64,000 nucleotides of DNA from an uncultured Acidimicrobiales bacterium (GCA_937922805.1 CALAJV010000024.1:1942-65941), one strand, 5' to 3'. Counted from the stretch's first letter, positions 21,202 through 47,412 are shown. Translations and numbers: made by a program. Notes: a model not told the origin generated them from the sequence alone.

Positions 21202-21534
21202 ATGGCTAGTCGTGAACCGCTTACTCGCCAAGATGTGACCGACGTAGCCGAACTGGCGTTGCTCAATCTGAGCGACGATGATCTGGATCGCTACACCGGA
21301 CAGCTTGATGCAGTATTCGATCTTGCAAGCAAGCTAGACCAGTTCGATGTGTCGGAGGTTCCACCAACCTCTCACCCATTTGGGTTGGTCAACGTATTTC
21401 GGGCCGACAGCCCTCCCAGCTCTGTTGGCATCGATGGCACAGACGACAACGTCCGCCAAGAAGCGTTGGCCAGCGGACCCGACGTTGAAGACAACCAGTT
21501 CAAGGTTCCTCCGGCGTTAGGGGAGTCGCCATGA
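21202..21534 (+). CDS. gatC: Asp-tRNA(Asn)/Glu-tRNA(Gln) amidotransferase subunit C
   Basis: 110 aa, LTRQDVTDVAELALLNLSDDDL.... ATGA overlap with gatA. Confidence 0.9.
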   Translation: MASREPLTRQDVTDVAELALLNLSDDDLDRYTGQLDAVFDLASKLDQFDVSEVPPTSHPFGLVNVFRADSPPSSVGIDGTDDNVRQEALASGPDVEDNQFKVPPALGESP

Positions 21535-23021
21535 GCGATGCCCAAATGCCAACTGCCGCTGAGATAGCGGCCGACGTTAGAACTGGAGCTACTACCGCCA
21601 TTGACGTGGTTGAGCGACACTTAGCGCTCATTGCAAGCTCCGACACCGAGATTCACGCTTTTCATACCGTGGCTGAAGAAGCGGCTCGATCAGCAGCCGC
21701 CGGGGTTGATGAGGCTGTTGCCGCGGGGCGAGATCCGGGCCCGCTAGCGGGCGTGCCAGTAGCGATCAAAGACAACATGTGCACAAGGGGGATTCCCACT
21801 ACGTGCTCATCGAAGATTCTAGAGAATTGGGTACCCCCCTACGACGCCACTGTTGTCACCAGGCTTCGTGAAGCTGGGGCGATTGTAATTGGCAAAACTA
21901 ATCTTGATGAATTCGCTATGGGCTCATCGACCGAGAACTCTGCCTTCGGCCCGACCCGGAACCCAGTAGACCCCACTCGTGTTCCTGGTGGATCTTCAGG
22001 TGGCTCCGCGGCCGCCGTTGCTGCTGGATTCGCCCCGCTCTCCCTTGGCTCCGACACCGGTGGTTCAATCCGTCAACCAGCAGCACTGTGCGGTGTCGTG
22101 GGCATGAAGCCAACATATGGTTCGGTTAGTCGGTACGGTCTGGTCGCTTTCGCTAGCTCGCTGGATCAGATCGGTCCGTTCTCGACTTCGGTGGCCGAAA
22201 GCGCGTTAGCTTTCGACGTGCTAGCCGGACCCGACGGGCGAGATTCGACCTCGATACCTCAACCTCACCAACCAGTCCTGCCGGTACTTGGCGAGGGAGT
22301 TGAGGGCCTCCGAATCGGGATAATCAACGAGCTAAGCGGCCGAGCGGGTGGCGATATCGCTGAAGGGTTCGAGTCCGAAGTCGTGGCCCAAGCAGAAGCA
22401 GCCGCCGATGCTCTTACCGCCGCCGGAGCCAAAGTAGATGAAGTTTCTATCCCATCAGCGGTCGCCGGACTCTCGGCCTACTACATGATCGCTCCAGCCG
22501 AAGCATCTTCTAATTTGGCCCGCTACGACGGTGTCCGATACGGCTTACGCCACGACGGCCCGAACACTGCCTCCATGATGGCGGCATCACGAACCGCAGG
22601 ATTCGGCGATGAGGTAAAACGACGAATCATGGTTGGAACGTATGCGTTGTCGGCTGGGTACTACGATGCGTTCTACGGTAAGGCCCAGAGAATTCGGACC
22701 TTGATGATCACCGAGTTCGACAAGGTCTATGAGGATTTCGATCTTCTACTGTCGCCGACATCCCCCTGCGTCGCCTTCCCATTTGGAGCCAAGGCCGACC
22801 CAATCACGATGTACTACAACGACGTTTGCACAATTCCGTCAAACCTGACCGGTCACCCTGCCATCTCAGTCCCGTTCGGAACCGGAGAAGCTGGCTTGCC
22901 GGTCGGCGTTCAAATCCTGGGTCCAATGCTGGCGGAGGGCGCCATCTACCGGGCCGCTGAGGTGTTAGAACAAGCGGCGGCGAAACTAGCTGGCGCGTCG
23001 GCCAACGAAGGAGGCCAGTAA
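21531..23021 (+). CDS. gatA: Asp-tRNA(Asn)/Glu-tRNA(Gln) amidotransferase subunit A
   Basis: Amidase signature GGSSGGSAAAVA, IKDN and GSDTGGSIRQPA. Confidence 0.95.
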   Translation: MSDAQMPTAAEIAADVRTGATTAIDVVERHLALIASSDTEIHAFHTVAEEAARSAAAGVDEAVAAGRDPGPLAGVPVAIKDNMCTRGIPTTCSSKILENWVPPYDATVVTRLREAGAIVIGKTNLDEFAMGSSTENSAFGPTRNPVDPTRVPGGSSGGSAAAVAAGFAPLSLGSDTGGSIRQPAALCGVVGMKPTYGSVSRYGLVAFASSLDQIGPFSTSVAESALAFDVLAGPDGRDSTSIPQPHQPVLPVLGEGVEGLRIGIINELSGRAGGDIAEGFESEVVAQAEAAADALTAAGAKVDEVSIPSAVAGLSAYYMIAPAEASSNLARYDGVRYGLRHDGPNTASMMAASRTAGFGDEVKRRIMVGTYALSAGYYDAFYGKAQRIRTLMITEFDKVYEDFDLLLSPTSPCVAFPFGAKADPITMYYNDVCTIPSNLTGHPAISVPFGTGEAGLPVGVQILGPMLAEGAIYRAAEVLEQAAAKLAGASANEGGQ

Positions 23022-24603: not shown

Positions 24604-25254
24604 ATGAGCGTGGCTATTTTTGACTACGGGGCAAGGGAGCGTGCTGAGCGTCAGCACGCGCCTGAGTCGACCGAGTCCAAACGGTCCAATGAAGGTGGCC
24701 CCGCTCGTCGAGGGCATCGACCGCGCCCACAAGTCCAATCGGTGCCAAGCTACGATCTTTCCGCTCTGTACGACCAGCACTATCGTTCCTTAGTGAAGCT
24801 TGCGTCAATGTATGTAGACACGAGTGAGGCCGCGGAAGAGGTCGTGCAAGACGCCTTCGTGAAGCTTGTCGCCGGGAACTACGTGATTGTTCAGGGTCGA
24901 GAAGTCGCATACCTCAGGCGAATGGTTCTCAATGGTGCTCGATCGTTGCTCAGAAAACGTCGAGTTCGTCGCCTACACCCACCAGACAAACCAGGTTTGG
25001 TTGCCGCTGCGGAGGTTTCCGGTGTCGCCAACACCGAACGAGACGAAATGCTGGCTGCGCTTCGGGAGCTACCAGAAAAGCAAGCCGCCGTTCTAATCCT
25101 GCGTTACTACCTGGACCTGTCCGAAGCCGACATCGCCGAAACGCTAGGAATGGCTCCAGGCTCAGTTAAGTCGCACGCTCACCGAGGGCTAAAAAAGTTG
25201 GAGAATGTCTTCGGTCCGAACCGGCTCGGTCATCCGTCGGGAGACAATCGATGA
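24604..25254 (+). CDS. ECF-type RNA polymerase sigma factor
   Basis: Region 2 (YDQHYRSLVKLASMYV..AEEVVQDAFVKL) and region 4 HTH (LPEKQAAVLILRYYLDLSEADIAETLGMAPGSVKSHAHRGLKKL). Confidence 0.85.
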   Translation: MSVAIFDYGARERAERQHAPESTESKRSNEGGPARRGHRPRPQVQSVPSYDLSALYDQHYRSLVKLASMYVDTSEAAEEVVQDAFVKLVAGNYVIVQGREVAYLRRMVLNGARSLLRKRRVRRLHPPDKPGLVAAAEVSGVANTERDEMLAALRELPEKQAAVLILRYYLDLSEADIAETLGMAPGSVKSHAHRGLKKLENVFGPNRLGHPSGDNR

Positions 25255-26966
25255 GTTCTGAAGTCAATTCTGAAGCCAACGGATCGGATCGGAGTCCCAT
25301 CGAAGATCATCTAGTTCAAGCCATGGGCGCGCAAGCCGAGAGGGTTGAGCCATTGTCTGGTTCCTATGAACGACTAGAGGCCGCGCTCAAGTATCAGTCT
25401 CGGCCGTCGAAACGATCTCGGCTTGGTCGTCCGATCGCTATCGCAGCGGCCAGCCTCGCCGTTGTCGGGCTCGGTGCATTCGCTGTTTCGCAACAACCGA
25501 GAACAGAAGTTGCAACCAGTTCCGGTGGTGGTCAAACAATTAGTCCAACCGATGACGGAGCGAGCGGCGATCAACAAGGTAACACCGAAGGCCAACCCGG
25601 TGACGTCGATCGGGGTGAGTCCGCTGAGAATAGCTCTTCTGGTGCTTCTCAACAGCAGAACCAAGCGGACCCGTCGACCGAAATCGATGACAGTTCGGCA
25701 TCCTCCGAAGGGGGCCCAGAGGAAAGGGCAAACGTCGACGCTCCATCTGAGGATCAGCTGCAAGCCGAAATCGCCGCTCAGCAGTTTGCCCCGGTTGGGT
25801 CATCTCGTTCCAGCGCCGTCCGGTCGTATTTGCACTTGATCGATGGGAACCGGAGCGAGTTCGATGCCAAGATTAACGATTTGCCAACTGGGCCCGATCA
25901 AGATCCAGTCGTAGTACCGATTACTAGCGGGGAGGTTGTCATTGCCGAGTTGATCGTCGCTGAGATCGACGATGGGTTCACCGTGATTGGTCATAGCCCC
26001 AACGATGATCTAGCGATCGATGATATCGACACATCAAGAGCGGCCGACGGAATCGTCACCATTACTGGAGCTGGCAGCGGATTCGAAGGAAGTGCATACG
26101 TCGAGTTTTTCTCTGTCGGCGATGGCCGGTTGCTAGCATCAGCCACAGTTCCGGTCGGGAGTTTTGACGAGCCGAAATCGTTTACGGTCGACGTTCCGGT
26201 AATTGGTTATGAACAGGCAGTGGTCGTTCTTAGATCGCTAACCCCAGTTGAGTTCGATCCGGAGTTCGTTGCGGCAACGGTTACCTACGACGGACCGGAT
26301 GACAATAGCGACTACGTGGTCGTCAGGGTCGCCGCCGATGACCCCGACGGTGGCTTGGTGATGCGCCAGGGCCCAGGAACTCAGTTTGAGCGGGTTGCCG
26401 TTATCGAACCTGGTTCTAGTCCAGTTGCCCGGCTACACGACTTCGCTCCCTACTTGGTGGATTCCGAAGTTTGGTGGAACGTGGTGAACAGTGATGGCAC
26501 CGAAGGTTGGGTCAACAGCGCATTTCTTGCTCGTAGGTCAACACCGACAGCTCGACAGCTGGCTACCGCCGATGATGTTCTGATTCAGATAAGGGATGAC
26601 AGCTACGAATCTATTCCGTTCGCTCGCCGGGTCGCTGTCGGGTCTTTCTCGAGCCCGCAGCAAATTTCGGGCCAAGAACTCGTCAGCAGCCAACGTTGGA
26701 CCGAGCCTCGTCGACTGCCCGAGGGTGACGAAGTACTGTTTGAAGGTTCCTTGGAGCAGTTCTTCAATGTTGAGGAGTCCACTCTTTTCGAGATCGAGTC
26801 GGATGAGAGCGCCTCACCGGAGCTTCAAAACTACTTCGGAGGGTTGGCGTCACAGGTCGCCGAGATTCGGCGACTCGATCAATCAGTTCACCGAGTTCAC
26901 GTGTTCTACGAGCCGACACCGGGTGGGATTCAAGTCATCGGTCTGATAAGTGAGCCGATCTCATAA
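25251..26966 (+). CDS. single-pass membrane protein with extracytoplasmic Gmad2-like and SH3b-like regions; candidate anti-sigma/partner of the ECF sigma
   Basis: ATGA overlap with the sigma gene. It has a ~60-aa cytoplasmic N-terminus, a TM (IAIAAASLAVVGLGAFAV) and an acidic low-complexity linker. An SH3b-like segment follows (LVMRQGPGTQFERVAVIEPG...WWNVVNSDGTEGWVNSAFL). Confidence 0.7.
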   Translation: MSSEVNSEANGSDRSPIEDHLVQAMGAQAERVEPLSGSYERLEAALKYQSRPSKRSRLGRPIAIAAASLAVVGLGAFAVSQQPRTEVATSSGGGQTISPTDDGASGDQQGNTEGQPGDVDRGESAENSSSGASQQQNQADPSTEIDDSSASSEGGPEERANVDAPSEDQLQAEIAAQQFAPVGSSRSSAVRSYLHLIDGNRSEFDAKINDLPTGPDQDPVVVPITSGEVVIAELIVAEIDDGFTVIGHSPNDDLAIDDIDTSRAADGIVTITGAGSGFEGSAYVEFFSVGDGRLLASATVPVGSFDEPKSFTVDVPVIGYEQAVVVLRSLTPVEFDPEFVAATVTYDGPDDNSDYVVVRVAADDPDGGLVMRQGPGTQFERVAVIEPGSSPVARLHDFAPYLVDSEVWWNVVNSDGTEGWVNSAFLARRSTPTARQLATADDVLIQIRDDSYESIPFARRVAVGSFSSPQQISGQELVSSQRWTEPRRLPEGDEVLFEGSLEQFFNVEESTLFEIESDESASPELQNYFGGLASQVAEIRRLDQSVHRVHVFYEPTPGGIQVIGLISEPIS

Positions 26967-28460: not shown

Positions 28461-29297
28461 ATGGCGCTTCCTCCCCAATCGGAAATCCCTACCTGCTACC
28501 GGCATCCGAACGTCTCATCTGCCGTTGGCTGCCAACGGTGCGCCAAGCCGATTTGTGCTAATTGTATGTCAGCTGCATCGGTCGGACACCATTGTCCCGA
28601 TTGTGCAAAAGGGGGAAGTCAGCAGATCTTCACCGCTCGAAACATGCCACAGTCGCAACCAGTGCTGACTATTGGAATCATGGCCACCTGCGTCGCCGCC
28701 TACCTCGGACAGCGAGCCACCCAAGGTGCGTTAACTAACGATGGTTTCTTGATCGGTCCAGCGGTTGCCAATGGCGAATACTGGCGGATCATAACCTCGG
28801 CATTTCTCCACGGCGGGATGATGCATATCCTCTTTAACTTGTGGGCACTTTGGGTGTTTGGCAAACCGTTAGAAGAGGCGGTTGGTCGCCTCAAGTTCGG
28901 AATTATCTATCTCGCAGGCCTCCTAGGCGGTGCGTTTGCTGTTGTGGCCTTCAATTTCTTAACACCAACCCTCGGAGCCTCGGGCGCCGTTCTCGGTTGC
29001 GCCGGAGCATTAGCGGCGCTGCTTTGGGCCCGAGGGATTAAGATCTGGGAGACCCCACTTGGGTTCATCTTCCTGCTCAACCTCGGACTTCCGCTTTTGC
29101 CGGGGACGAACATTTCCTTTTGGGGTCACTTTGGGGGAATGGTCGGAGGATTCCTCGCCGGTTGGTTGCTTTACCTGCTGCCAAGTCAGCGCCGCGACTT
29201 GCCAATGGCCGGTCTCATCGGTGCCGGTGCAGCGTTGTGTGTCGCGTTGGCGGTTGGAACCGTCTTGATCGCCAACAACGGCGGGCTTGTCGGTTAG
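28461..29297 (+). CDS. rhomboid-family intramembrane serine protease with N-terminal Cys-rich zinc-ribbon
   Basis: N-terminal CYRHP..CQRCAKPICANC...CPDC. Rhomboid motifs WRIITSAFLHGGMMHILFN, catalytic GASGAVLG and HFGGMVGG. Confidence 0.85.
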   Translation: MALPPQSEIPTCYRHPNVSSAVGCQRCAKPICANCMSAASVGHHCPDCAKGGSQQIFTARNMPQSQPVLTIGIMATCVAAYLGQRATQGALTNDGFLIGPAVANGEYWRIITSAFLHGGMMHILFNLWALWVFGKPLEEAVGRLKFGIIYLAGLLGGAFAVVAFNFLTPTLGASGAVLGCAGALAALLWARGIKIWETPLGFIFLLNLGLPLLPGTNISFWGHFGGMVGGFLAGWLLYLLPSQRRDLPMAGLIGAGAALCVALAVGTVLIANNGGLVG

Positions 29298-29310: not shown

Positions 29311-30003
29311 TCAGCCGAGGTGTTGGCTCAGAAACTGCTGAGTTCGTTCCCAGGCTATGTCGGCTGCCGCTTGATCGAAGGTATCTCCATCTTCAAAGAA
29401 CCAATGCTTGGTATCGGGGTACAGATGGAACTCGGTTTCCCGCCCACCGAGACGAATGAAAGACTCGGTTACCACCCGGTCTTCTTCGCTCACCATGTGA
29501 TCGTCGCCGGCGTAGTGGCCTTGGTAGGAAGCAGTGGCGTCATCGAAGTCGATGGATTGCGTTCCGTAGAACGTAACAACAGCCCCTACTTCGGTGGTGA
29601 GGCGAGCCGAAAGCCACAATGCCATTGAGGCTCCCATCGAAAAACCGATCACTGCAATAGGCTCGGATGCGTCTTTGGAAGCCGCTCGAACAGTTTGGGC
29701 TGACGACATCACCAGTCCACTAAGTTCATCGGGGTCGACGCTGGCTAGTGCCTCTTGGCCTTCAGCTTCATTCGCTGGCGTTTGGCCAGCGAGTAAGTCT
29801 GGGGCTAAAGCGGTGTAGCCGCTTTGGGCTAGGCGGCCGCAGAATTCCTTTACCCATGGGGTTAGCCCCCACCAAGAATGAAGAACGAGCACCCCGGGAC
29901 CGGGACCACCAGCAGGGTCGATCAAAAACGCCTCGCCAGCCTTGGCTTTGGTAAAGGGGGAGCTAGATTCGGACGACTCAGAGCTAGACATATCCTGGTG
30001 CAC
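29311..30003 (-). CDS. dienelactone hydrolase family alpha/beta hydrolase
   Basis: PGVLVLHSWWGLTPWVKEFCGRLAQSGYTALAPDL, a nucleophile elbow GFSMGA and a C-terminal ...HWFFE. Confidence 0.85.
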   Translation of the reverse strand: MHQDMSSSESSESSSPFTKAKAGEAFLIDPAGGPGPGVLVLHSWWGLTPWVKEFCGRLAQSGYTALAPDLLAGQTPANEAEGQEALASVDPDELSGLVMSSAQTVRAASKDASEPIAVIGFSMGASMALWLSARLTTEVGAVVTFYGTQSIDFDDATASYQGHYAGDDHMVSEEDRVVTESFIRLGGRETEFHLYPDTKHWFFEDGDTFDQAAADIAWERTQQFLSQHLG

Positions 30004-30376
30004 TCTACCTGCTCAGCTCTGCCGGTTTGTGCATCCAATCTCGTTGGCTAGGCGACGATACGAGCTAGCTAGTTCGGTATAGGCTACGTGTCGGCCAAGC
30101 GGGATTGGTTGAGTTCTAGCTAAGGCGGTGGCCTGGTCGATAGGGAAAGAATAGTTTGTCTGGCCTAACCGACCCAACCACCACGGGCCGAGAGCAAAAC
30201 CATCGCTGACCCAAGTCGGCGATGGACGAACGAAATCTCCGAATTCGGGGAACTTTCAATGGTCCATCGCCGTTAGAACAACACGACCTGACAAAGTTCG
30301 TCTCTCGAAATTCGACGAACCTAATAGCTAACAACCCAAACGACTGCAGGGTCCAGAAGAAGAGGGAGTAAAACAG

Positions 30377-31084
30377 TTGCGTGAGTTCCTTGAAATAGTG
30401 ACCAGTCTGCCAACCGTAATTTTCACCGTGTCGTTGTTGGTAAGCCTTGGCTACTGGATGATCTCAACTGCCCTAGGATTCGGCGACTCTGGACTCGACG
30501 GGGATCTAGAACTCGACGCCGATTTTGAAGTAGACCTTGATGTTGGAACCGATATAGAGCCCGATATCGAGCTCGAAAGCTCGATCGATTCTGGAGTCGG
30601 TGGTGGGGGACTTGAATTTGGGTCGTTCATGACCATGATCGGTCTTCACCTGATGCCGCTTAGTCTCGTTTTCACCGTGACGTCACTTGTTGGGTGGCTT
30701 CTCTCGATAACGATGGCAGTGGCGGTCGGCAATTACACCAGCGTCGGCCTCTTGATTGGGATCGGTATCTTTGTGTTGGCCCTCTTCGGCGGTTTCATCG
30801 CGTCCGGTCGGGTAGCTCGATTAGTTGCCCCGATATTTCGGATGCAACGAGCGGCCGGTCATCAGCAGCTAGTCGGACGGATGTGCGTACTACGAACCGG
30901 GCGGGTCGACCAAGAATTCGGTCAAGCAGAAGTAGTCGATAATGATGGCGGGTCTCACCTCGTCCAAGTCCGGTGCCGGGAACAGAACCAGTTAAAGGCC
31001 GGTGACCAAGCACTTTTAGTTGACGTGGACGACGGAGTTTTTTACTTGTCAGATGACATCGACGTTCTTCGTGACAACACGTAG
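30377..31084 (+). CDS. YqiJ/NfeD-like membrane protein (membrane anchor plus C-terminal OB-like soluble domain)
   Basis: TTG start preceded by AGAAGAGGGAG. N-terminal TM, an acidic linker (DGDLELDADFEVDLDVGTDIEPDIELE), 2-3 further TMs, and a C-terminal beta-rich tail (GRMCVLRTGRVDQEFGQAEVV...VQVRC...GDQALLVDV). This is the same layout as E. coli YqiJ, and it precedes a flotillin gene. Confidence 0.7.
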   Translation: MREFLEIVTSLPTVIFTVSLLVSLGYWMISTALGFGDSGLDGDLELDADFEVDLDVGTDIEPDIELESSIDSGVGGGGLEFGSFMTMIGLHLMPLSLVFTVTSLVGWLLSITMAVAVGNYTSVGLLIGIGIFVLALFGGFIASGRVARLVAPIFRMQRAAGHQQLVGRMCVLRTGRVDQEFGQAEVVDNDGGSHLVQVRCREQNQLKAGDQALLVDVDDGVFYLSDDIDVLRDNT

Positions 31085-31183
31085 CAATAGAAATTTGCAA
31101 CGACCGGCAGTGAACACAAGTAGCAATGGCAACCAGAACTTCAAACAAACATCGGAACAAAGAAAGCGGCAGGTAGTAACGAT

Positions 31184-33175
31184 ATGAGTACGGTCCTAAT
31201 TTCAATCGCAGCAGCAGTGTTGATCGCCCTTGCGGTCATCTTCGCTGTCGGATTTGCGGTTACCCGACTTTATCGAAAGGTTCCACAAGGCAAGGCCTTG
31301 CTGGTTAGCACCACAAAAGCAGTTGTGGTTACCTTCACAGGTCGAGTAGTTCTGCCAATCCTCCACAAAGCCGAAATCATGGATATTTCGGTCAAAACCA
31401 TCGAGATCGATCGTCGCGGCACCGAGGGTCTGATTTGTGAAGACAACATCCGAGCCGACATCAAGGTCAACTTCTTCGTCCGGGTGAACAAAGCGGAAGA
31501 AGATGTCATCAAAGTTGCCCAAGCCATCGGGACCGAGCGGGCATCAGACCCTGTCACCCTCGAAGAGCTGTTTGCGGCCAAGTTCTCAGAAGCGCTGAAA
31601 ACTGTCGGTAAGCAAATGGAATTCGTGTCGCTCTACACAGAGCGAGCAACGTTTCGCGACCGGATCATAGAAGTTATCGGCACAGACCTCAACGGTTACG
31701 CTCTTGAAGATGTCGCCATTGACTACCTCGAACAGACGCCTCTAGACCAGCTCGACACCAACAACATTCTCGATGCTCAAGGTATTCGCAAAATTACCGA
31801 ACTCACCGCGGTGCAACACGTCGCCACTAACAATGCGTCAAACGATGAGCGCAAGCACATCACAGCCAAGAACGTTGAGACGAGAGAGGCCGTTCTCGAA
31901 CTTGAGCGTCAACAAGCCGACGCTGAGGCCCGCCAGCAACGTGAGATCGCCGCCGTCCGGGCCCGAGAAGAAGCAACCACGGCCGCAGTGGAGGCTGAAG
32001 AACGACTCAAAGCCGAAATGGCCAATATCGCAACCGCTCAGAAGCTTGGGGTTGAAGAAGAGAATCAGCAACGAGAAATCGAGACCGCATTCAAAAATCG
32101 TGAGCGCGTGATTGCCATCGAACAAGAACGAGTCGAAAAAGCTCGCGAACTCGAGTTCATGAGCCGAAAAGTTGAGACTCTCGCAGCCGAGAAATCATTG
32201 GAGCAAGAAAAGGCCGCCATTGCTGATATCCGACGGGGGCGTGTTTCGGTCGAGAGGACTGTGGCCGAGGAAGAGGAGCAAATCGCAACCTTGAGGATTG
32301 TCGAAGAGGCAAACCGTCAACGAGAAGCAATCGTCATCGCGGCCGAGGGAGACGCTCAGGGAGCGTTCGTTCGAGACATCAAAATGGCAGAAGCAGCCGA
32401 GCAGGCGGCGGAATCTCGAGCCAAAGAGAAAATAACTATGGCTAGGGCTGAGCTTGAAGCATCTGAGATGTCGACCAAAGCCGAAGTGCGATTGGCCGAT
32501 GGTGCTCAAGCAGCAGCTGCAGCCGAGGGCTTAGCTGAAGCTGAGGTGCTCGAAGCTCGAGCTGTTGCTCTAGAAAAGCAAGGAATGGCTGATGTTCGGG
32601 TCGAGCAGGCCCGAGCCGATGCAGTTCGAGAAGTAGGACAAGCAGAAGCGGAAAAGTTGCGAGAAGCCGGTCTGGCCGAAGCCCAAATTGTCGAAGCGAA
32701 ACTTCGAGGCGAAGCAGCGGGTCTTTCCGACAAAGCAGCTGCAATGCGAGAAATGGAAGGTGTTGGTCAAGAACACGAAGAGTTTGTACGTCAACTCGAA
32801 GCCGACACCAAGGTCCGAATGGCGGAAGTTGACGCCCGAGTCGGTGTAGCTACTGCCCAAGCCACCGCCATGCAAGCTGGCTTCGAGTCAGCCAACATCG
32901 AGATCGTCGGCGGGTCGGATATGTTTATCGACCGCATGGTCGACTCGATCTCTGCCGGCAAGAGGGTAGACAAGTTTATTGAGAACTCAGACGCGGTGGC
33001 CGGGATTGCGGAACCGTACCTCAACGGTGAGAAAGATCTCGTTGCCAAGCTAAGCGAAGCGATCGCTGGCCTCGGAGCCGATGGCATCCGCGACCTCTCT
33101 GTTGCGGAGCTACTACGCCAGATCAGTTCTGGTACTGAGCCCGGCGCTACGTCCGGAAATGGTCACAGCGAATAA
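31184..33175 (+). CDS. flotillin-family SPFH protein (YqiK/FloT-like)
   Basis: 663 aa with an N-terminal TM, an SPFH core (RLYRKVPQGKALLV...ICEDNIRADIKVNFFVRV...) and a long E/A/R/Q-rich coiled coil. It aligns by eye with E. coli YqiK. Confidence 0.9.
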   Translation: MSTVLISIAAAVLIALAVIFAVGFAVTRLYRKVPQGKALLVSTTKAVVVTFTGRVVLPILHKAEIMDISVKTIEIDRRGTEGLICEDNIRADIKVNFFVRVNKAEEDVIKVAQAIGTERASDPVTLEELFAAKFSEALKTVGKQMEFVSLYTERATFRDRIIEVIGTDLNGYALEDVAIDYLEQTPLDQLDTNNILDAQGIRKITELTAVQHVATNNASNDERKHITAKNVETREAVLELERQQADAEARQQREIAAVRAREEATTAAVEAEERLKAEMANIATAQKLGVEEENQQREIETAFKNRERVIAIEQERVEKARELEFMSRKVETLAAEKSLEQEKAAIADIRRGRVSVERTVAEEEEQIATLRIVEEANRQREAIVIAAEGDAQGAFVRDIKMAEAAEQAAESRAKEKITMARAELEASEMSTKAEVRLADGAQAAAAAEGLAEAEVLEARAVALEKQGMADVRVEQARADAVREVGQAEAEKLREAGLAEAQIVEAKLRGEAAGLSDKAAAMREMEGVGQEHEEFVRQLEADTKVRMAEVDARVGVATAQATAMQAGFESANIEIVGGSDMFIDRMVDSISAGKRVDKFIENSDAVAGIAEPYLNGEKDLVAKLSEAIAGLGADGIRDLSVAELLRQISSGTEPGATSGNGHSE

Positions 33176-33205
33176 TCCGCCTCCCAACGACAAGTTACGA
33201 GTCCA

Positions 33206-36200
33206 ATGACTGATAGTAAGTCAGAAGTCGAACCTCACGAGGAGCCTGGTGCGGACAACCAGGCTCCGGTCGAGGACGCCTCGCCAGAATCGCATCAAGC
33301 CATAAATCCCGACGGGCAAGCCTCTACAGAAGCTGGAGCGAGCCAAGATACTTCGGTAGCCCAGGGAACCTATCAGCTTCTCCGAGGCCGACTAGAAAAA
33401 GCGGCCCAAGAGCTAGCTGACCGATCTCTAGCCTTGAACGCGGCCAGGCTTGAAGCCTTCGGTTCGTCACAGCTTGATTTGGCCGCCACCGAACGAGTTC
33501 GAACTGAGAACAACGTTGTACCCCGCGATGTTGCGGCGGTCGATGACCAATTGATCATGGCCTACAACGCCCAAGCTGGAATCAGGAGCGAAATACGGCC
33601 CGAAGATGTCTTCAGCGTTCATCACCTTGAAGAAGTCGACGGTGAGGTGGTCATAAACCCTAATCCCGATGGCTTGGCTGGGTCCGCTCTAGACGACGAC
33701 AAGTTCCGACGAGATTTCCAAGAGCTCCACGCCTACTTCAAAAACGCTCGTGTCCAACAGGTGTATCGCTCCGGTCAAAAGTTGTTGGCTGTATTTCGAA
33801 CCGGCACCGCCAGCAACGATATTCGAGTGTTGCGATGGGAAATAAGACCGGACGGTGGGCTCCAGTATCTGGATGACAGAGGCGATCGAGATCACCGGTT
33901 TCCGCCAAGTCACGACGTTGATTGGTTGCAGTCCACTCGTGCTGATCACGTCGATGGTCGATTCATTTCGGTCCTCGACCGGGTGTTCGTCGGCCCTCTT
34001 AACGGAAAGATCGAACTTCGAATAGAAGATGGTTCGCCCGACGGAGAACTACTGCTAACCGAGCCGGTCGGCCAAAGTGATCAAGCACTTCAAGACTGCG
34101 AAGTAGCCTATGCCAAGGCCGGAGATCTGATAATCCTGCGAGTACTGCCGTACGGCGAAACAGTAACCCGCTACTACGTCGTCAATCTGTTGATGAACTC
34201 GGCGGTCCGCATTGATTCGCTCGGTGCCGCGTTTAGGCAACTTCCAGAAGGACATGGTCTGATCTTTCCCGATGGGATGTATCTCCGAACTGGAGAGGTC
34301 CGGACTTTCGATCTTGACCCATCAGGCATGGAACTGTTGGAAGTAGAACACTCGCCCAACGGTGAAGACGTTCTCTACGTGTTTCATCAGGTTGAGGACG
34401 GTCGGTCGATTCTGCTGCCGTACAACGTTGTCCGGCAAGAAATAACTAACCCAATATGGTGTCACGGCCACTGCACCTTCGCTGATGGTGGAATGGTCGT
34501 GTTCCGTGAGGAGCCAGAACCAACCAGGGTCCACCCTATTCAGCTCTGGATAACCCCGTTCTGTAGCGACGAGTGGTACGCCGATCAACCTCGTCAGCAA
34601 ACCCCGCTAGATCGAATAGGCAATCCGGCGTTAGTGACCGGCATCGCCGACGCTCTAGCACTCACTCGAGCCGTATCCGATGTCGAACCGTCGGCTGCCA
34701 TGTACGGAGACCTGTTAGGTTCGGCGGGACGAACCCTTGACACTCATCACTGGCTGAGCTCGCAAGATGTTGGAGATCTAGCGTCGAAAATCAATGAAAT
34801 TCGACTCGTCGCTGAGCAGGTGATCGATGAATTCGAACGGGTGCAAAGTGTTCGCAAAGCGTCGGCCGAAGCGCTAGCGGAAGCGGAAGTGTCGCTCGAT
34901 GAAATCTTCGAACAGCGGAAAATTGCGCCACCTCAACGTACCGAAGATTACATTGGTCAGCTCAGCGAGTTTCGGCGATCTATCGGCCATCTGCATACCC
35001 TTCGAGAGCGCCGAGAAATTGACGTCGCTCGAATCGATGAACTGACCGCGACCGCTCAACAAGGCCACGATAGTTTGGCTCAAGCCGCGGCTCGTCACCT
35101 TTCTACTGATGGTGCCTTTACCCGTTACCACGATGGTTTGGTCGAGCTGGCCGATTTATCGGCTGATCTGAACTCGTCAGTAGCGGCAACTGCGTTAATG
35201 GCCAAGGTCGACACCATCGGCGACTCCATGGACATGGTGGCTGGCACGGTTAGTGATCTCGTGGTTGAAGATCCACGAGTCCGGACGTCGGTGTTAGAAC
35301 AGGTCTCGAACGTTTTGGCTGAGCTCAACCGGGTCCGGGCCGGAGTTGAGATCAAACTAGAGACTCTGATCGAATCAGAAACTGGTGCTGCCTTTGCTAC
35401 CGAGCTCGGTTTGTTCGGGCAAAGTATCGCCACGTCGTTAGCTCGTGCCGATACCCCTGAAGCTTGCGACGATGCGCTAGCTCGACTTTTGCTGCAACTC
35501 GAACAACTGGAAACTTCTGCCCCTCGAACCGATAGCCAGCTCGTAGAGCTAGAGCAACGTAGAGATCAGGTAACGGAAGCACTCACGGCTCGACGGCAGA
35601 AACTTGTCGATGATCGTCAACAACGAGCCGATCGACTGGTTTCAACTGGCACCAGAACCTTGGAACGAGTGGGTGAGCGATCGAGCTCGCTCGATTCAGC
35701 CGACGACATAAACGGGTTTTTCGCCGCCGACCCCATGGTGGTTCGGGTTCGTAGCTTAGTTGAACAGCTTCGAGAAATGGGTGAACCAGTTCGGGCTGAC
35801 GAGCTAGCAGCCCGATTAGGGAGCGCTCAAGACGGTGCCATGAGAGCGCTTCGAGATCGACAAGATTTGTTCGACGGCGACGCGGTCAAGCTTGGACTTC
35901 ATCGATTTAGCGTCGATGATAGAAAGCGAGAACTGACACTAGTTCCGGTCGACGGCGCCCTCAACGCCGTGCTGACGGGTACCGATCTGCGATTTTCGTT
36001 AGACCAATCGGAACTCAACAAGTACGAGGGGCTTTGGGATACGCCGCTTCCATCCGAGAGTCCTGCTGTTTACCGGTCAACCTTCTTGGCTGGCGATATT
36101 CTCGCCACGCTGGCCGCGGCCGAAATCGAGGATCTTCTGTCCACCAAGGTAACCGACGACCATGACCCTGTCTTAGAACTCATTCGTTCCGAGGTCGACG

Positions 36201-38134
36201 GTCGACTTGACGAAGGTTATGACCGTGGTGTCCACGATTTTGATGCTGCTGCAATCTTGCGGGCAATTGGGGGAAAGGCTTTGGAGGCTGGACCGTTACT
36301 TACCAGCGGTGAAGATAGAGCCAAGGCCCAGCTGGCCTGGGCCCATCAATTCGGTGAGTCTGATCGGGACCTGTGGACCAATAGGGGATCGGCGGCTGCC
36401 GACCTAGACCCTGATCCCGAAGCGATGGCGATGTTGGTTTCGGAATTGGCAGAGGCGCTCGACATCTCGACAGTTCAGGCCAATTACCTTCTCGTCGAGC
36501 TTTCGACTGCTGGCCCGCTGTCCTTCGCCCAGACAACTCAAGCTGAGGTTCTGACTGCGGACGTTGCCCGACAAGACGAGGTCAAAGCAGCGCTAAAGGC
36601 ACTGCAATCAGATCCGAACGGAGCAAGCGCGGTACTAACCGGATTCGTCCATCGAGAGGCTGAACGGGCAGATCTGTTGCACCTGGTTCCTGAAGTCACC
36701 GTCAGTCTGCTCACTCCCGATCTAGACCGACATGCAATCGAGATTGATCTCTCATTCGAAGTCACGGGTATCAACGGCCGCCACGAAACTATCGATTCAG
36801 GAACGCTCGCTGGTCGTGTTGATGAAGTGATGACGACAGTCATGGTCCACCGTTCACAAGTCTTGCCCGAACACAAAAAATTCACGGCCACCCGTCGCCA
36901 AGTAGTAACCGAACTTCGCCAAACGCTTCGAGTCGACGATTTAGAACCGAAAGTGCCGGAAGGATTCGTTCGCAACCAGCTAATCGACAAGGTGTATTTA
37001 CCTCTGATCGGCGACAACTTGGCTCGACAGATCGGAACGGTTGATGACTCAGCGGGGGCCCGGAGCGGACTGCTGATGTTGCTATCGCCTCCCGGTTACG
37101 GCAAGACGACCTTGGTTGAGTATGTGGCCGACCGGCTGGGTATGGCCTTGGTAAAGATCTCTGGTCCCGGTCTCGGTCACGAAGTAACTTCGCTCGACCC
37201 CGAACAAGCTCCAAGTGCAACATCGGCCCGCGAAATCGAACGGATCAACCTATCCTTCTCGCTAGGTAGCAACGTGTTGCTCTACCTCGACGACATTCAG
37301 CACACAAACCCAGAGTTCTTGCAACGATTCATTTCGCTGTGCGATGGCCAACGCCGGATCGAAGGCGTTTGGGACGGAGCAGCACGAACGTTTGATCTTC
37401 GAGGCAAACGGTTTGCGGTAGTCATGGCCGGTAATCCGTACACCGAATCGGGGCAGAGGTTCCGAGTGCCCGACATGCTCGCTAACCGGGCCGACACTTA
37501 CAACCTTGGTGACGTTCTAAGTGGCAACGACGAGTTGTTCGCTAGGAGCTACCTTGAGAATGCGTTGACGGCCAACAAAGTCACAGCGCCGCTCTCCGGT
37601 CGAGATCCGGGCGACTTCGAACGCTTGGTCAGAGCGGCAGAAGGCCACCCTCTTGGAGAATCTGAACTTAGTCACTCGTACTCGCCAACGGAGATGACCG
37701 AGATAATAACCGTGTTGCGACATCTGAAGCAGGTGCAATCCGTGGTGCTGGCCGTCAACCGCCAATATATCTCGTCGGCTGCGTCTGATGATACGTATCG
37801 AACCGAACCGTCGTTCTTGCTTCAGGGCTCGTATCGAAACATGGTTCGAATGGCGTCGCGGATCTTGCCGGCAATGACTCCCGACGAAGTGGAGACAATA
37901 ATCGATGAACACTACGTTGCTGAGTCGCAGGCTTTGACTGGAGCGGCTGAGGCCAATTTGTTGAAGTTGGCAGAGCTCAGAGACAAACTAACCGAACAAG
38001 AACAAACTCGGTGGCTAGAAATTCTAGCTACGTTCCGACGACAGAAACGCCTTGGCGGAGACGAGCGGGATCCGGCTACCCGAGTGGTCGCTGCTATCGA
38101 GGGCATCGGCGAAGCACTGCGGCAACAATCCTAG
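33206..38134 (+). CDS. giant (1,642 aa) soluble protein with a single C-terminal MoxR/midasin-like AAA+ ATPase module; function unknown
   Basis: Uninterrupted 4.9-kb ORF starting 30 nt after the flotillin stop. Walker A is SPPGYGKT (nt 37085-37108) and Walker B is VLLYLDD (37274-37294). The sensor-1 region is AGNPY (37427-37441), followed by VPDMLANRAD (to ~37495). Confidence 0.85.
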   Translation: MTDSKSEVEPHEEPGADNQAPVEDASPESHQAINPDGQASTEAGASQDTSVAQGTYQLLRGRLEKAAQELADRSLALNAARLEAFGSSQLDLAATERVRTENNVVPRDVAAVDDQLIMAYNAQAGIRSEIRPEDVFSVHHLEEVDGEVVINPNPDGLAGSALDDDKFRRDFQELHAYFKNARVQQVYRSGQKLLAVFRTGTASNDIRVLRWEIRPDGGLQYLDDRGDRDHRFPPSHDVDWLQSTRADHVDGRFISVLDRVFVGPLNGKIELRIEDGSPDGELLLTEPVGQSDQALQDCEVAYAKAGDLIILRVLPYGETVTRYYVVNLLMNSAVRIDSLGAAFRQLPEGHGLIFPDGMYLRTGEVRTFDLDPSGMELLEVEHSPNGEDVLYVFHQVEDGRSILLPYNVVRQEITNPIWCHGHCTFADGGMVVFREEPEPTRVHPIQLWITPFCSDEWYADQPRQQTPLDRIGNPALVTGIADALALTRAVSDVEPSAAMYGDLLGSAGRTLDTHHWLSSQDVGDLASKINEIRLVAEQVIDEFERVQSVRKASAEALAEAEVSLDEIFEQRKIAPPQRTEDYIGQLSEFRRSIGHLHTLRERREIDVARIDELTATAQQGHDSLAQAAARHLSTDGAFTRYHDGLVELADLSADLNSSVAATALMAKVDTIGDSMDMVAGTVSDLVVEDPRVRTSVLEQVSNVLAELNRVRAGVEIKLETLIESETGAAFATELGLFGQSIATSLARADTPEACDDALARLLLQLEQLETSAPRTDSQLVELEQRRDQVTEALTARRQKLVDDRQQRADRLVSTGTRTLERVGERSSSLDSADDINGFFAADPMVVRVRSLVEQLREMGEPVRADELAARLGSAQDGAMRALRDRQDLFDGDAVKLGLHRFSVDDRKRELTLVPVDGALNAVLTGTDLRFSLDQSELNKYEGLWDTPLPSESPAVYRSTFLAGDILATLAAAEIEDLLSTKVTDDHDPVLELIRSEVDGRLDEGYDRGVHDFDAAAILRAIGGKALEAGPLLTSGEDRAKAQLAWAHQFGESDRDLWTNRGSAAADLDPDPEAMAMLVSELAEALDISTVQANYLLVELSTAGPLSFAQTTQAEVLTADVARQDEVKAALKALQSDPNGASAVLTGFVHREAERADLLHLVPEVTVSLLTPDLDRHAIEIDLSFEVTGINGRHETIDSGTLAGRVDEVMTTVMVHRSQVLPEHKKFTATRRQVVTELRQTLRVDDLEPKVPEGFVRNQLIDKVYLPLIGDNLARQIGTVDDSAGARSGLLMLLSPPGYGKTTLVEYVADRLGMALVKISGPGLGHEVTSLDPEQAPSATSAREIERINLSFSLGSNVLLYLDDIQHTNPEFLQRFISLCDGQRRIEGVWDGAARTFDLRGKRFAVVMAGNPYTESGQRFRVPDMLANRADTYNLGDVLSGNDELFARSYLENALTANKVTAPLSGRDPGDFERLVRAAEGHPLGESELSHSYSPTEMTEIITVLRHLKQVQSVVLAVNRQYISSAASDDTYRTEPSFLLQGSYRNMVRMASRILPAMTPDEVETIIDEHYVAESQALTGAAEANLLKLAELRDKLTEQEQTRWLEILATFRRQKRLGGDERDPATRVVAAIEGIGEALRQQS

Positions 38135-38467: not shown

Positions 38468-39709
38468 GTGAATAAAGGTCCGATCGGCTGGGCGATCTCG
38501 ATCTGGCGTTTTGTGCGTGATGTTGCGCTGCGCTGGTACAACGAGCGTATTGGCGACCTCGCAGCCAGCGTTACCTTCTGGATTGTCGTCTCGTTGCCGG
38601 CGTCGATCTTGGCGTTGTTGGCCGCTCTGGGTCCTATCGATAATCTGCTTGGCGATGGCATCGACCTGAAGGGAGCCATCATTGAGCGGGTTGATGCGTT
38701 CATTTCTCGAGTGTTCACCGACGAGAGCAGCGCGGTAGCCGAAGCTGTAAGTGGACTATTCGACCGTAGTAACTCTGGCCTTCTGACGGTCTCGCTAGCC
38801 ATTGCTATTTGGTCATTGAGTCGTGGCTTCTCTGGTCTGATCCGAGCGCTCGAAGATATCTACGACATCGAGGATCGTCGACCCTGGTATCACACGCGGT
38901 TCGTGGCCGTAGTTTTGGGCTTCGGTAGCATGTTCATCTCGGTGCCTTTGGTACTGGCCGAGCAATTCATTTGGAACAAGATTCCTGACGGACTGCTAGA
39001 ACGAGGTCTGCGAACCATCGTCGCTGTTGTGATTTTGGTCCTGTGGGCTTCGGTCGTATTGCATTACGGTCCGGCGAAACGGCACCGTTGGAGTTTCGAC
39101 ATTCCCGGTGCGATTGTGGTTGCGGTCTTGTGGTGGTTATTAACAATTGGATTTGGCTATTACATCAGCTTGGATTTCGCCAACGAGATTCAGTCGGCGG
39201 TAGGAACCTTCCTGTTGGCACTTACCTGGGTTTGGATGGCGGCTCAGATGCTCCTCATCGGTGGTGCCGTCAACTATCTATTCGGGGAACGCCTCGGTGT
39301 TAGCCGGAATCGCCGACCATGGAAAATAAACGATGTCGTCACCAAAAGCACCGGAGAGATCAAGAAGATCGTTGTGCCCAACGGCCGCGATGACAGTAAA
39401 GGTGACGAGGGTTCGAATGAAGGCGATCGGTCTAGCGCTGGCTCTACTCAACTGAGCTTGGACGTCGACCCAGATCTGGCTCGCTCCGGACAGCCGGACA
39501 ACGGAACCTTGAACGGGCGGCAGGTAGGTCGAGAAGTAAGTCCACCGACACTACCGCAACCTGGCTCTGGTACCACCCCGTCTATGACGAGAGGTGATCA
39601 AACAAAAGTAATGCGGACCCAGGACGGTTCTTCGCCCAAAGTGATGCCTGGAACCGAGGCGGGAGATCCAACTAGCATTCTTCCACGCTCGCCCCTTGAT
39701 CGAAAGTAA
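38468..39709 (+). CDS. YihY/BrkB-family membrane protein with ~120-aa low-complexity C-terminal tail
   Basis: GTG start. N-terminal ...RWYNERIGDLAASVTFWIVVSLPASILALL, six hydrophobic spans, and a G/S/P/D-rich tail. Confidence 0.8.
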   Translation: MNKGPIGWAISIWRFVRDVALRWYNERIGDLAASVTFWIVVSLPASILALLAALGPIDNLLGDGIDLKGAIIERVDAFISRVFTDESSAVAEAVSGLFDRSNSGLLTVSLAIAIWSLSRGFSGLIRALEDIYDIEDRRPWYHTRFVAVVLGFGSMFISVPLVLAEQFIWNKIPDGLLERGLRTIVAVVILVLWASVVLHYGPAKRHRWSFDIPGAIVVAVLWWLLTIGFGYYISLDFANEIQSAVGTFLLALTWVWMAAQMLLIGGAVNYLFGERLGVSRNRRPWKINDVVTKSTGEIKKIVVPNGRDDSKGDEGSNEGDRSSAGSTQLSLDVDPDLARSGQPDNGTLNGRQVGREVSPPTLPQPGSGTTPSMTRGDQTKVMRTQDGSSPKVMPGTEAGDPTSILPRSPLDRK

Positions 39710-41056: not shown

Positions 41057-41752
41057 ATGACTAGAGTCGGCGTCTTTATCGACGGTCAGAACGTCACAAT
41101 CGGTGCCAGGCATGCCTTCGGTGATGGAAACATGCATCCGCTTCTACTGGCTCGATCGTTGGCTGGCTCGGACACGTTGGTTGAAGTCCGCTACGCTACC
41201 GGCGTTCCCAGTCCTGACCACGACCCTGAGCGGGCCGAATCAGAGGCCCGGCGACATCGGCTAATGACCCGGACCGATGTGGTGGTCCTAGAGCGCGAGC
41301 TTCGGTATCGGGAACAGTGGGAAATTCGAGACCGGGATCTGCCTAGGCCTCGAGGGAGAGTGGGAGAGGTACGCCAAGCCAGGGTGAAGGCGTATGATCG
41401 AGGCCAGGAAAAAGGGATCGATGTGTGGTTGGCCCTCGACGCCCTAGTCATGTGCACACGAGCTGATCTAGACCGAGTTGTGATTGCGTCGGCCGATTCG
41501 GACCTAGACATGGTCCCGGACTATCTGAAGATGATTCCAGGTAACGAAGAAACGAACGTTGTTTCGGCCAAAGTCGTCTCTGACGGTCGCCCGTTTAAAC
41601 CCAACGACGCCTACGATGACACAGTTGCCATCGACCGAGCCATCTACGAATATGCTAAAGACGAATTCGACTACTCCGCTGAGCTCGACGATCGAGCAGT
41701 TGAGGAGTTCCTTTCTCGAATAGGTTCAGAGTCTGATGGTATTCGTGACTGA
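41057..41752 (+). CDS. NYN-domain (LabA-like PIN-fold) protein
   Basis: RVGVFIDGQNV, EKGIDVWLALDAL and VIASADSDLDMV acidic motifs, typical of NYN/LabA nucleases. Confidence 0.75.
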   Translation: MTRVGVFIDGQNVTIGARHAFGDGNMHPLLLARSLAGSDTLVEVRYATGVPSPDHDPERAESEARRHRLMTRTDVVVLERELRYREQWEIRDRDLPRPRGRVGEVRQARVKAYDRGQEKGIDVWLALDALVMCTRADLDRVVIASADSDLDMVPDYLKMIPGNEETNVVSAKVVSDGRPFKPNDAYDDTVAIDRAIYEYAKDEFDYSAELDDRAVEEFLSRIGSESDGIRD

Positions 41753-41799
41753 AGTAGCGCTAAATCAGAAGCGCACTCGTACCTGGTTGGAGAATTGAT

Positions 41800-42492
41800 A
41801 TGGCTGGACCAATAGAGCTGGACTTTGTGCTCTCGGGTGATCACGTAGATCGCCTGCCCGGAACTGCGGCCGAGGTTGCCATAGTCGGACGATCGAACGT
41901 TGGAAAATCGTCGCTGGTAAACGCTCTAAGCAACCGGAAAAGGTTGGCTCATGTCAGTAACACCCCAGGGCGTACCCGATTGCTCAATTTGTTTGTTTTA
42001 GCGGGCAAGACCGGCTCGGCGGTGGGAAATGGTCCAGGTCGAAAAGCCTCTGGTGGTAAACGCTCGGGCAGCAAAGGGACTGTGGCCAAAGCGCGAACTG
42101 GGTCGGATGGCCTGCTAGAGGCAACGGTTATGGACTTACCCGGCTATGGCTACGCAGCAGCCTCGAAAGAGCTCCGAGCCGGTTGGCAGCAGATGATTGA
42201 GGGCTATCTGCTACAGCGAGAGAATTTGAACATGGTAATCGTTCTAGTCGACGGTGAGATCGGGCCAACGAAGCTCGACATTCAAATGCTCGAATGGTTA
42301 CGGGCCTGCGATTTGCCTCACACAGTTGTCGCAACGAAACACGACAAAGTTAAGTCGTCAAAGCGAGTCAAGCGAAAACGTGAGGTGGCCGAACGGTGTC
42401 AGCTCGAGGAGGGTGATGTGGTTTGGGTCAGCTCGGTCAAAGGAGTTGGCATTGATCGTCTTCGAGGTCTGATCTTGGCTTGGCTTAGCTAA
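41800..42492 (+). CDS. engB: ribosome-biogenesis GTPase EngB/YsxC with a K/G-rich insertion between the switch I (G2) and G3 motifs
   Basis: G1 is GRSNVGKSS, followed by SNTPGRTR, then G3 DLPGYGYA and G4 TKHDK. About 44 aa (VLAGKTGSAVGNGPGRKASGGKRSGSKGTVAKARTGSDGLLEAT) lie where B. subtilis YsxC has about 8. Confidence 0.85.
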   Translation: MAGPIELDFVLSGDHVDRLPGTAAEVAIVGRSNVGKSSLVNALSNRKRLAHVSNTPGRTRLLNLFVLAGKTGSAVGNGPGRKASGGKRSGSKGTVAKARTGSDGLLEATVMDLPGYGYAAASKELRAGWQQMIEGYLLQRENLNMVIVLVDGEIGPTKLDIQMLEWLRACDLPHTVVATKHDKVKSSKRVKRKREVAERCQLEEGDVVWVSSVKGVGIDRLRGLILAWLS

Positions 42493-45820: not shown

Positions 45821-45859
45821 CCTAAGTACTAGGTCCTATTGGAAGGGGGAGGCCTCACC

Positions 45860-47307: not shown

Positions 47308-47412
47308 TTTTGGTTGCTTTCACTGGTTAGTTCCTAGCGATACCGCTTCGTGGCATCTGCTGTTCGATGGAGTTGGTTAACGGTATTGCTGGTTGAATCC
47401 GTTCGGTTGGGG

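Follow-up and report, generated by a model that had tools for sequence, protein, structure and literature searches.

In the yqiJ-yqiK operon of Escherichia coli and the yuaF(nfeD2)-floT operon of Bacillus subtilis, a gene for a small transmembrane (TM) protein with an OB fold immediately precedes that of a TM-anchored flotillin. What flotillins do biochemically is a matter of continuing debate, in bacteria as in eukaryotes; SPFH cages organise AAA+ machines, as HflK/C does with FtsH, and we know of no energy-consuming partner that is specific to flotillins. The subject of this study is a 64,000-nucleotide (nt) stretch of DNA from an uncultured Acidimicrobiales bacterium (GCA_937922805.1 CALAJV010000024.1:1942-65941; the whole stretch is called the window, and positions are counted from its first letter) that holds a gene pair of the same layout. 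Unlike the yqiJ-yqiK and yuaF-floT operons, which have no third ATPase gene (the E. coli locus was examined), the pair in the window is followed by a gene for a 1,642-residue AAA+ ATPase, referred to below as the giant.

The operon has been described by Ravi et al. 2024 (mSystems 9:e00847-23, PMC11237479) from gene-neighbourhood analysis alone. As presented in the sections of the article that treat it, the operon combines a CesT/Tir-PspA dyad, a band-7/flotillin protein, a beta-propeller-coiled-coil AAA+ protein and a YqiJ/YuaF-type TM protein, to which a phospholipase D (PLD) family protein is added in some Proteobacteria; 'related abbreviated operons' without PspA are also mentioned, and the authors inferred from the gene context an ATP-dependent, chaperone-like role in membrane dynamics. 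In the window, the three core proteins and their architectures agree with those of the published operon. The window lacks the CesT/Tir-PspA dyad of the full form, and thus holds an abbreviated version of the operon; PLD is likewise missing. An example given from Dokdonia (ANH61663.1) has the same layout as a locus on a Hymenobacter plasmid (L169) that is considered below. An earlier note, made from the present DNA alone, had proposed the three genes as an undescribed system, a claim that has to be withdrawn because the published operon already includes the shortened form.

In the same sections, the evidence offered is comparative genomics only, with no linkage statistics, structure, rhomboid link or experiments. 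The survey of prokaryotic SPFH operons by Hinderhofer et al. (2009) does not mention an ATPase partner, and a literature search found no experimental paper on the operon or on the family of the giant. The locus is a member of an operon class that is known by computation and experimentally unstudied. Since the gene association is already published computationally, the value of the present analysis lies in a quantified linkage, in fold models and in the experimental opportunity, and not in the discovery of a new kind of system; new relative to PMC11237479 are the asymmetric linkage statistics, the identification of DUF3686 and DUF7902 together with a probably misleading database name, the fold models whose nearest relatives are MoxR proteins, the rhomboid association, and the distribution over plasmids and phages. 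The association is unlikely to surprise a specialist, and the locus offers a clean route to the question of what the flotillin scaffold does. An ATPase of 1,600-1,900 residues is tied genetically to one flotillin clade across hundreds of species in at least seven phyla, which makes it directly testable what acts on the flotillin scaffold, and at what cost.

The three genes form one operon on the plus strand, with intergenic gaps of 99 and 30 nt; the open reading frames (ORFs) fall at exactly the positions that the earlier note had named:

30377..31084, plus strand: gene 1, a putative YqiJ-like (NfeD-type) membrane protein of 235 amino acids (aa) with a TTG start
31184..33175, plus strand: gene 2, assigned as a long YqiK-type flotillin of 663 aa
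33206..38134, plus strand: gene 3, the giant, a probable cytoplasmic ATPase of 1,642 aa with the order DUF3686-DUF7902-AAA+ and the database name 'DNA repair ATPase'

The genetic linkage between the giant and the flotillin is near-obligate. A homologue of the giant is present in at least 594 genomes (one genome per GTDB species), and the linkage was counted by scanning fetched loci with back-translated peptide motifs; only exact matches were accepted, so that all counts are lower bounds. Three flotillin motifs (DAQGIRKIT, KFSEALKTVGK and AIDYLEQT) were scanned across 82 loci with a giant gene. Each motif matched at most once per locus, always on the strand of the giant and 1.4-2.0 kb upstream of it, and together they identified a flotillin in 77 of the 82 loci. 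One further locus (L075) is the 78th linked case, in which the flotillin is truncated and its motif carries one or two mismatches, and the remaining four have 1.4 kb or less of upstream DNA and are uninformative. With 78 linked loci and four that have too little upstream DNA, the linkage from giant to flotillin is 78/78 among informative loci. The earlier note had named beforehand a lack of enrichment beside flotillin or NfeD genes as grounds for giving up its proposal; in all 78 informative loci, the homologue of the giant is encoded directly downstream of a flotillin gene.

The linkage in the opposite direction is looser. Among 80 metagenome loci that were chosen by their flotillin motifs, 49 have at least 4.2 kb of downstream DNA, and in 44 of these the Walker A pattern of the giant, which matched 84/84 known giant loci, is found on the same strand, downstream of the flotillin; an N-terminal motif of the giant is present in seven of the shorter loci. 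Three of the five exceptions were inspected, and each keeps the pair of YqiJ-like protein and flotillin with no giant ORF downstream. Because the linkage is 78/78 in one direction and 44/49 with giant-less pairs in the other, the giant appears to depend on this flotillin and not the reverse: the giant seems to require its partner, and the flotillin can exist alone.

The triad is found in Actinomycetota, Acidobacteriota, Myxococcota, Gammaproteobacteria, a metagenome-assembled genome (MAG) from Clostridia, Deinococcota and Bacteroidota, at least seven phyla in all, and a three-gene arrangement that recurs across phyla is far beyond chance. Carriers that are tractable in the laboratory include Streptomyces, Corallococcus, Myxococcus and Pseudomonas fluorescens SBW25 with the plasmid pQBR103, and the chromosomes of Proteus mirabilis and Vibrio campbellii encode a giant as well. 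Start and stop codons overlap in three loci (L085, L043 and L166), a closer gene coupling than the 30 nt in the window.

Gene 2 is assigned, in agreement with the earlier note, to the YqiK-type flotillins; it is a long member with a predicted TM anchor, an SPFH domain and an EA-rich coiled coil, and the assignment comes from its family. The window protein itself has no sequence match in Pfam (PF15975 Flot included), NCBIfam or the PDB, and a PDB search with the family profile returned nothing useful. In contrast to the single protein, which has no Pfam match, a profile built from 26 flotillin sequences aligns with E. coli YqiK in hhalign at 99.8% (E=5.5e-28) over 410 columns that cover the TM anchor, the SPFH domain and the coiled coil. 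Moreover, 6 of the 26 homologues match PF01145 Band_7, the homologues carry the names flotillin, SPFH or YqiK in their source records, the translation has an apparent hydrophobic N-terminus, and its EA-rich repeats align with those of YqiK. The window flotillin is 56% identical to its counterpart in Actinosynnema, 55% to that of an Acidobacteriota MAG and 45% to that of Pseudomonas; in the same pairwise comparisons, the YqiJ-like proteins are 32%, 35% and 23% identical, respectively. It differs from E. coli YqiK in being about 110 residues longer, with extra EA-rich repeats, and in having a conserved C-terminal region (HEEF...IVGG...GK.VD) that YqiK lacks. The idea that this region marks the giant-linked copies was rejected, as giant-less flotillins have the same C-terminal motifs. 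A further observation concerns Streptomyces phaeochromogenes (L167), where a second, canonical flotillin operon (20002-22070; a 477-aa Band_7 and Flot protein with a 171-aa neighbour) is located 5 kb from the triad, so that two types of flotillin coexist in one genome.

The evidence that gene 1 encodes a YqiJ-like protein is weak but collinear. Its translation has the YqiJ/NfeD layout that the earlier note had described: an N-terminal hydrophobic segment, an acidic D/E linker, further hydrophobic segments and a predicted beta-rich C-terminal tail. Residues 165-222 match Pfam YqiJ_OB with E=2.2e-4 and 21.6 bits, under the gathering cutoff of 25.4, and a 29-sequence profile aligns with E. coli YqiJ in hhalign at 82.5% (E=1e-5) over 126 collinear columns spanning the TM segments and the OB tail; a PDB search with the profile returned nothing useful. 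Two homologues (P0393 and P0417) have precomputed matches to PF07290 (YqiJ_N) or PF21001 (YqiJ_OB), and the Hymenobacter counterpart is annotated by NCBI as DUF1449, which is the YqiJ family. The position of the gene points the same way. Orthologues lie immediately upstream of the flotillin gene in Actinosynnema, Acidobacteriota and Pseudomonas, and a YqiJ-like gene is directly 5' of, and co-directional with, the SPFH gene in the window and in L001, L002, L004, L043, L054, L041, L077, L085 and L168-L170; further, in 31 loci the motif scan places FGQAEV 2.2-2.9 kb before the giant. The established pairing of nfeD or yqiJ with a flotillin gene is seen both in the window and in orthologous loci of distant genomes. 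The TTG start is supported by an RBS-like GAGGGAG (ribosome binding site) that precedes it and by the N-terminus MREFLEI, which lines up with the MxEF starts of homologues.

The giant is organised as follows:

33410..34750, plus strand: DUF3686 (residues 69-515), a predicted beta-propeller domain (Pfam PF12458 and AlphaFold)
34751..36967, plus strand: modelled helical stalk or bundle region with a small beta domain and a helical domain (AlphaFold), containing DUF7902
35114-35356, plus strand: DUF7902 (PF25472; residues 637-717; Pfam E=1.7e-16)
36968..37885, plus strand: MoxR-like AAA+ module (about residues 1255-1560; Pfam AAA/AAA_5 and Foldseek)
37085-37108, plus strand: Walker A, SPPGYGKT (residues 1294-1301)
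37280-37294, plus strand: Walker B, LYLDD (residues 1359-1363)

The match to DUF3686 is complete (profile positions 1-448 of 448, E=1.6e-156), and AAA/AAA_5 is matched at residues 1290-1414, where AAA scores 26.5 bits, over its cutoff. The earlier note had seen a MoxR-like AAA+ module near the C-terminus as the sole recognisable catalytic element of the protein; the module is indeed there, and Pfam also recognises DUF3686 and DUF7902, which the sequence alone could not have revealed. The family comprises more than 1,269 homologues of the same architecture and 698 clusters at 50% identity (representatives were searched with residues 60-720); among the homologues listed, 120/120 have DUF3686 and DUF7902, and most have a precomputed AAA-type match.

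AlphaFold models of residues 50-880 and 861-1642 have a mean pLDDT (predicted local distance difference test) of 89 each. They predict an N-terminal helix, an all-beta propeller, very long helices (20-58 residues in the stalk region), a small beta domain, a helical domain and a C-terminal AAA+ fold with extra helices. Compared by Foldseek, the N-terminal half resembles only generic propeller or propeller-plus-solenoid proteins (the clathrin heavy-chain N-terminus, Vps11 and Elp1) with E of about 1e-5 and low TM scores. The best matches of the AAA+ module are CbbQ (6l1q, TMt 0.60) and NorQ (9qh4, TMt 0.53-0.57), followed by RuvB and MCM; FtsH is a merely distant AAA+ structural match. Across alignments of 15 and 37 sequences, SPPGYGKT, LYLDD, MAGNPYTE (the sensor-1 region) and LQGSYRNM (GxSxR, sensor-2-like) are invariant. 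Because the Walker A, Walker B and sensor motifs do not vary, the giant is probably an active ATPase.

MoxR proteins are about 300-500 aa long and normally act with a VWA-domain partner. The giant shares with the MoxR ATPases CbbQ, NorQ and RavA the conserved Walker A, sensor and GxSxR lid motifs, CbbQ and NorQ being its nearest structural matches; it differs from them in that the module forms the C-terminal part of a 1,642-aa protein that also has a predicted propeller and stalks, and in its Walker B sequence. FtsH-type partners of SPFH proteins, in comparison, belong to the classical AAA proteases, are anchored in the membrane and carry an M41 domain, whereas the giant has no hydrophobic TM segment evident by eye in its translation, no protease match in Pfam and a MoxR-like AAA+ module. 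By analogy, the operon would nonetheless resemble HflK/C-FtsH, mitochondrial prohibitin/m-AAA and SLP2-PARL-YME1L in pairing an SPFH scaffold with an AAA+ machine.

We modestly favour the reading in which the giant serves the flotillin as a dedicated remodelling or chaperone machine, driven by ATP, and takes part in envelope-stress membrane dynamics; this would make the triad a membrane-microdomain machine. In such a machine, the YqiJ-like protein and the long flotillin would assemble at the inner membrane into an SPFH structure that faces the cytoplasm, as their families suggest and as other NfeD-SPFH pairs do, and the giant would be its dedicated cytoplasmic partner. The single MoxR-like AAA+ module would form a hexameric ring, judging from its family; the beta-propeller on the long helical stalk of each subunit could dock on the flotillin/YqiJ assembly or on its clients; and the energy of ATP hydrolysis might be spent on remodelling, disassembling or loading the flotillin scaffold, or on chaperoning the proteins in it. 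The action of the giant would belong to the envelope-stress and membrane-dynamics response, to which other lineages may physically join CesT/Tir-PspA, a short rhomboid protease and a hydrolase of the PLD family. Speaking for this reading are the linkage in both directions, the breadth of the triad and its close gene coupling, the PspA, rhomboid and PLD genes that give the operon a membrane-stress setting in other lineages, the predicted folds with their invariant motifs, the precedent of SPFH cages that organise AAA+ machines, and the similar conclusion that Ravi et al. drew independently.

A more specific version is doubtful as yet, and we put it forward tentatively: the giant may be the first dedicated AAA+ motor for flotillin remodelling, with a hexameric MoxR-type ring and six propeller-tipped arms that would grip the cytoplasmic flotillin/YqiJ cage, and with ATP driving its opening, disassembly or loading. 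If so, it would be a bacterial counterpart of Vps4 on ESCRT-III or of FtsH inside HflK/C, and flotillin microdomains would have an energy-driven cycle.

Several observations weigh against the reading of the giant as a flotillin-dedicated machine. About 10% of the closest flotillins have no adjacent giant, which indicates that the flotillin works without it. The Walker B sequence of the giant is DD and not the usual DE, so that hydrolysis could be slow or regulatory, and we saw a VWA gene neither in the window (±8 kb) nor around those related loci that have annotated neighbours. The window flotillin fails Pfam Band_7, and the YqiJ match is under the curated threshold. The spread over phyla is patchy and the identity between them is about 40-45%, which is compatible with horizontal transfer; it is a pattern also typical of conflict systems. 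Finally, we infer, rather than observe, the contact between giant and flotillin, as we do the oligomeric state, the direction of remodelling and the physiological trigger.

The additional genes that join the triad in other lineages bear on what the giant may act upon. PspA immediately precedes the triad in Pseudomonas (L043, with DUF2170), Methylomonas (L077) and the Hymenobacter plasmid, where the order is Tir-like chaperone, PspA, DUF1449, flotillin and giant. Downstream of the giant, Pseudomonas (L043) and Limnobaculum (L054) have genes for a short rhomboid, with 50% identity between the two loci, and for a single-HKD PLD hydrolase, with 53%. This gammaproteobacterial rhomboid subfamily has 184-190 aa and the PLD hydrolase 227-229 aa (L043 15211-16467; L054 14940-16505; L168 478-1032), and their motifs recur in six more loci (L048, L059, L064, L075, L082 and L164). 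Operons with a co-encoded rhomboid recall, as an analogy, the SLP2-PARL-YME1L trio. The largest version is on pQBR103 of P. fluorescens SBW25 (L168, NC_009444.1 85401-104320), whose nine genes encode PspA, a rhomboid, DUF2491, DUF350, DUF1190, a glutathionylspermidine-synthase-like protein, the YqiJ-like protein, the SPFH protein and the giant; its rhomboid is 47% identical to that of L043, though placed differently in the operon. As pQBR103 is a well-studied megaplasmid, it provides a ready experimental model of the nine-gene version.

These variants suggest a PspA-centred alternative, in which the giant is a Vps4-like remodeller of PspA/ESCRT-III polymers, the flotillin and the YqiJ-like protein merely recruit it to the membrane, and PspA is encoded elsewhere in the present genome. 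The CesT/Tir-PspA genes directly upstream of the triad in several lineages agree with it, as does a cluster of PspC-type two-component and Toastrack genes 9-12 kb downstream in the window. However, PspA is present in only 4 of about 17 loci with inspected neighbours, compared to 78/78 for the flotillin; the AAA+ module is MoxR-like and not of the classical Vps4/MIT type; and PspA_IM30 has no match in the flanking ORFs of the module or in any other ORF of the window that was scanned. Weighed together, these findings make the PspA-centred alternative unlikely.

Less probable still is a role in conflict, where the giant would sense infection through its propeller and trigger membrane disruption through the flotillin and the YqiJ-like protein, with PLD or rhomboid effectors in some lineages. 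The patchy distribution over seven phyla resembles horizontal transfer, the operon is carried by some megaplasmids (pQBR103 and those of Streptomyces, Deinococcus and Hymenobacter), toxin-antitoxin pairs adjoin it in one locus (L166), and the genes behind it in Pseudomonas L043 encode PLD and an SF1 helicase. However, none of 50,697 phage records contains the giant, and of 72,556 plasmid records 13 do, several of the 13 being really chromosomes. In a comparison with PADLOC-DB v2, the giant has only weak similarities, to LmuB in its coiled-coil-rich part (residues 527-811, E=4.8e-4) and to the P-loop of IetA (E=3e-3), and genes 1 and 2 have none; the core triad, moreover, has no recognisable effector domain. 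The window itself speaks for residence on the chromosome, as the earlier note had supposed: the flanks are ordinary chromosomal genes, no mobility genes were found among the annotated flanking genes, and the GC content of the module (53-55%) is the same as in the remainder of the window. The neighbours include housekeeping genes (ligA, gatA/gatB and a PknB-like kinase, farther from the module), and the order of a minus-strand dienelactone hydrolase, YqiJ-like protein, flotillin, giant and BrkB is shared with a related Acidimicrobiia genome (L085, a 62%-identical relative); together, housekeeping neighbours and common synteny indicate vertical inheritance. Overall, there is little support for a phage-defence role of the triad.

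That the giant is truly a DNA-repair ATPase of the SMC/Rad50/SbcC kind with incidental membrane neighbours is highly improbable: the Pfam description of PF12458 ('ATPase involved in DNA repair'), the NCBI name ('DNA repair ATPase') and the weak coiled-coil match to LmuB, an SMC-like protein, speak for it, but SMC, Rad50 and SbcC have an ABC-type head split by an antiparallel coiled coil whereas the ATPase of the giant is an uninterrupted AAA+ fold of MoxR type at its C-terminus, domain searches of the giant revealed neither a nuclease nor a DNA-binding domain, no nuclease partner gene is in the operon, and a 78/78 linkage with a membrane flotillin is not incidental. A literature search for DUF3686/PF12458, for 'DNA repair ATPase' with flotillin and for flotillin with MoxR returned nothing relevant. 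The widespread name is probably misleading, having no support in domain content, fold or genomic context, and it probably stems from coiled-coil similarity to SMC/SbcC-like proteins.

The immediate surroundings of the triad in the window are:

28461-29297, plus strand: rhomboid protease gene, 1 kb upstream of the module, with the minus-strand hydrolase gene between
29311-30003, minus strand: dienelactone hydrolase gene, divergent from gene 1
30004..30376, plus strand: upstream intergenic region of 373 nt between the divergent dienelactone hydrolase gene and gene 1, a putative promoter or regulatory region
38468..39709, plus strand: BrkB/YihY-family membrane protein (PF03631), outside the conserved core

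Upstream, the flank consists of MatE, the rhomboid and the dienelactone hydrolase; downstream, it consists of BrkB/YihY, an FMN-dependent dehydrogenase, NYN, a GTPase and AsnC. The closest relatives of all three proteins are from Acidimicrobiales MAGs, with 61-75% identity, which makes an actinobacterium of Acidimicrobiia type the probable source. The upstream intergenic region has no match to the sigma-70 consensus, signals for intrinsic terminators and promoter consensus inside the module are not above shuffle expectation, and an Rfam scan of the window found no RNA family. In L085, the start of the BrkB gene overlaps the stop of the giant, while the gap in the window is at least 333 nt; BrkB/YihY is possibly a lineage-specific accessory gene.

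Two rhomboid candidates were considered and rejected. The rhomboid encoded in the window has only generic similarity (E=0.006) to the operon-linked short rhomboids, lies on the far side of a minus-strand gene from the module and has no counterpart in the syntenic L085; it is of a different type, and its nearness is probably coincidental. A 197-aa gene downstream of the Streptomyces giant has no homology to the rhomboids.

Other genes accompany the operon in single lineages. In an Acidobacteriota MAG (L002 3132-5417) and a TARA marine contig (L084 4190-6472), the YqiJ-like gene is immediately preceded by one for a conserved protein of about 760 aa; its copies share 51% identity and an N-terminal GGTGAVGG Rossmann-like motif and have no Pfam match, and the protein may be a lineage-specific fourth component. 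In L166, a 208-aa gene with no Pfam match (9378-10004) lies between flotillin and giant and overlaps the start of the giant, and the toxin-antitoxin genes just upstream of the operon (3536-5688) are two MazE/PIN pairs.

The window also contains a PSP/Lia-type envelope-stress cluster (46672-50340), located 9-12 kb downstream of the triad:

46672-47307, minus strand: LuxR-type response regulator
47413-48642, minus strand: PspC-domain histidine kinase
48853-50340, plus strand: protein with PspC and LiaF-like_C (Toastrack) domains

In the syntenic L085 the cluster is not beside the triad, so that its proximity in the window may be coincidental. Near it, and 7.7 kb downstream of the giant without being adjacent, a 265-aa protein (45839-46636) has a TY-Chap3 domain of the CesT/YbjN-like chaperone type (E=4e-6); in the full operon of other phyla, PspA is accompanied by chaperones of the CesT/Tir-like kind. 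Further, 3.4 kb upstream of the module (24604-26966), the stop of a gene for a sigma factor of the extracytoplasmic function (ECF) type (216 aa) overlaps the start of the next gene, for a 571-aa bacterial-SH3 protein, and the two may form a sigma/anti-sigma pair. On the other side, 3 kb beyond the giant (41057-42492), an NYN-domain protein (231 aa) is followed on the same strand by a small MMR_HSR1-type GTPase (230 aa).

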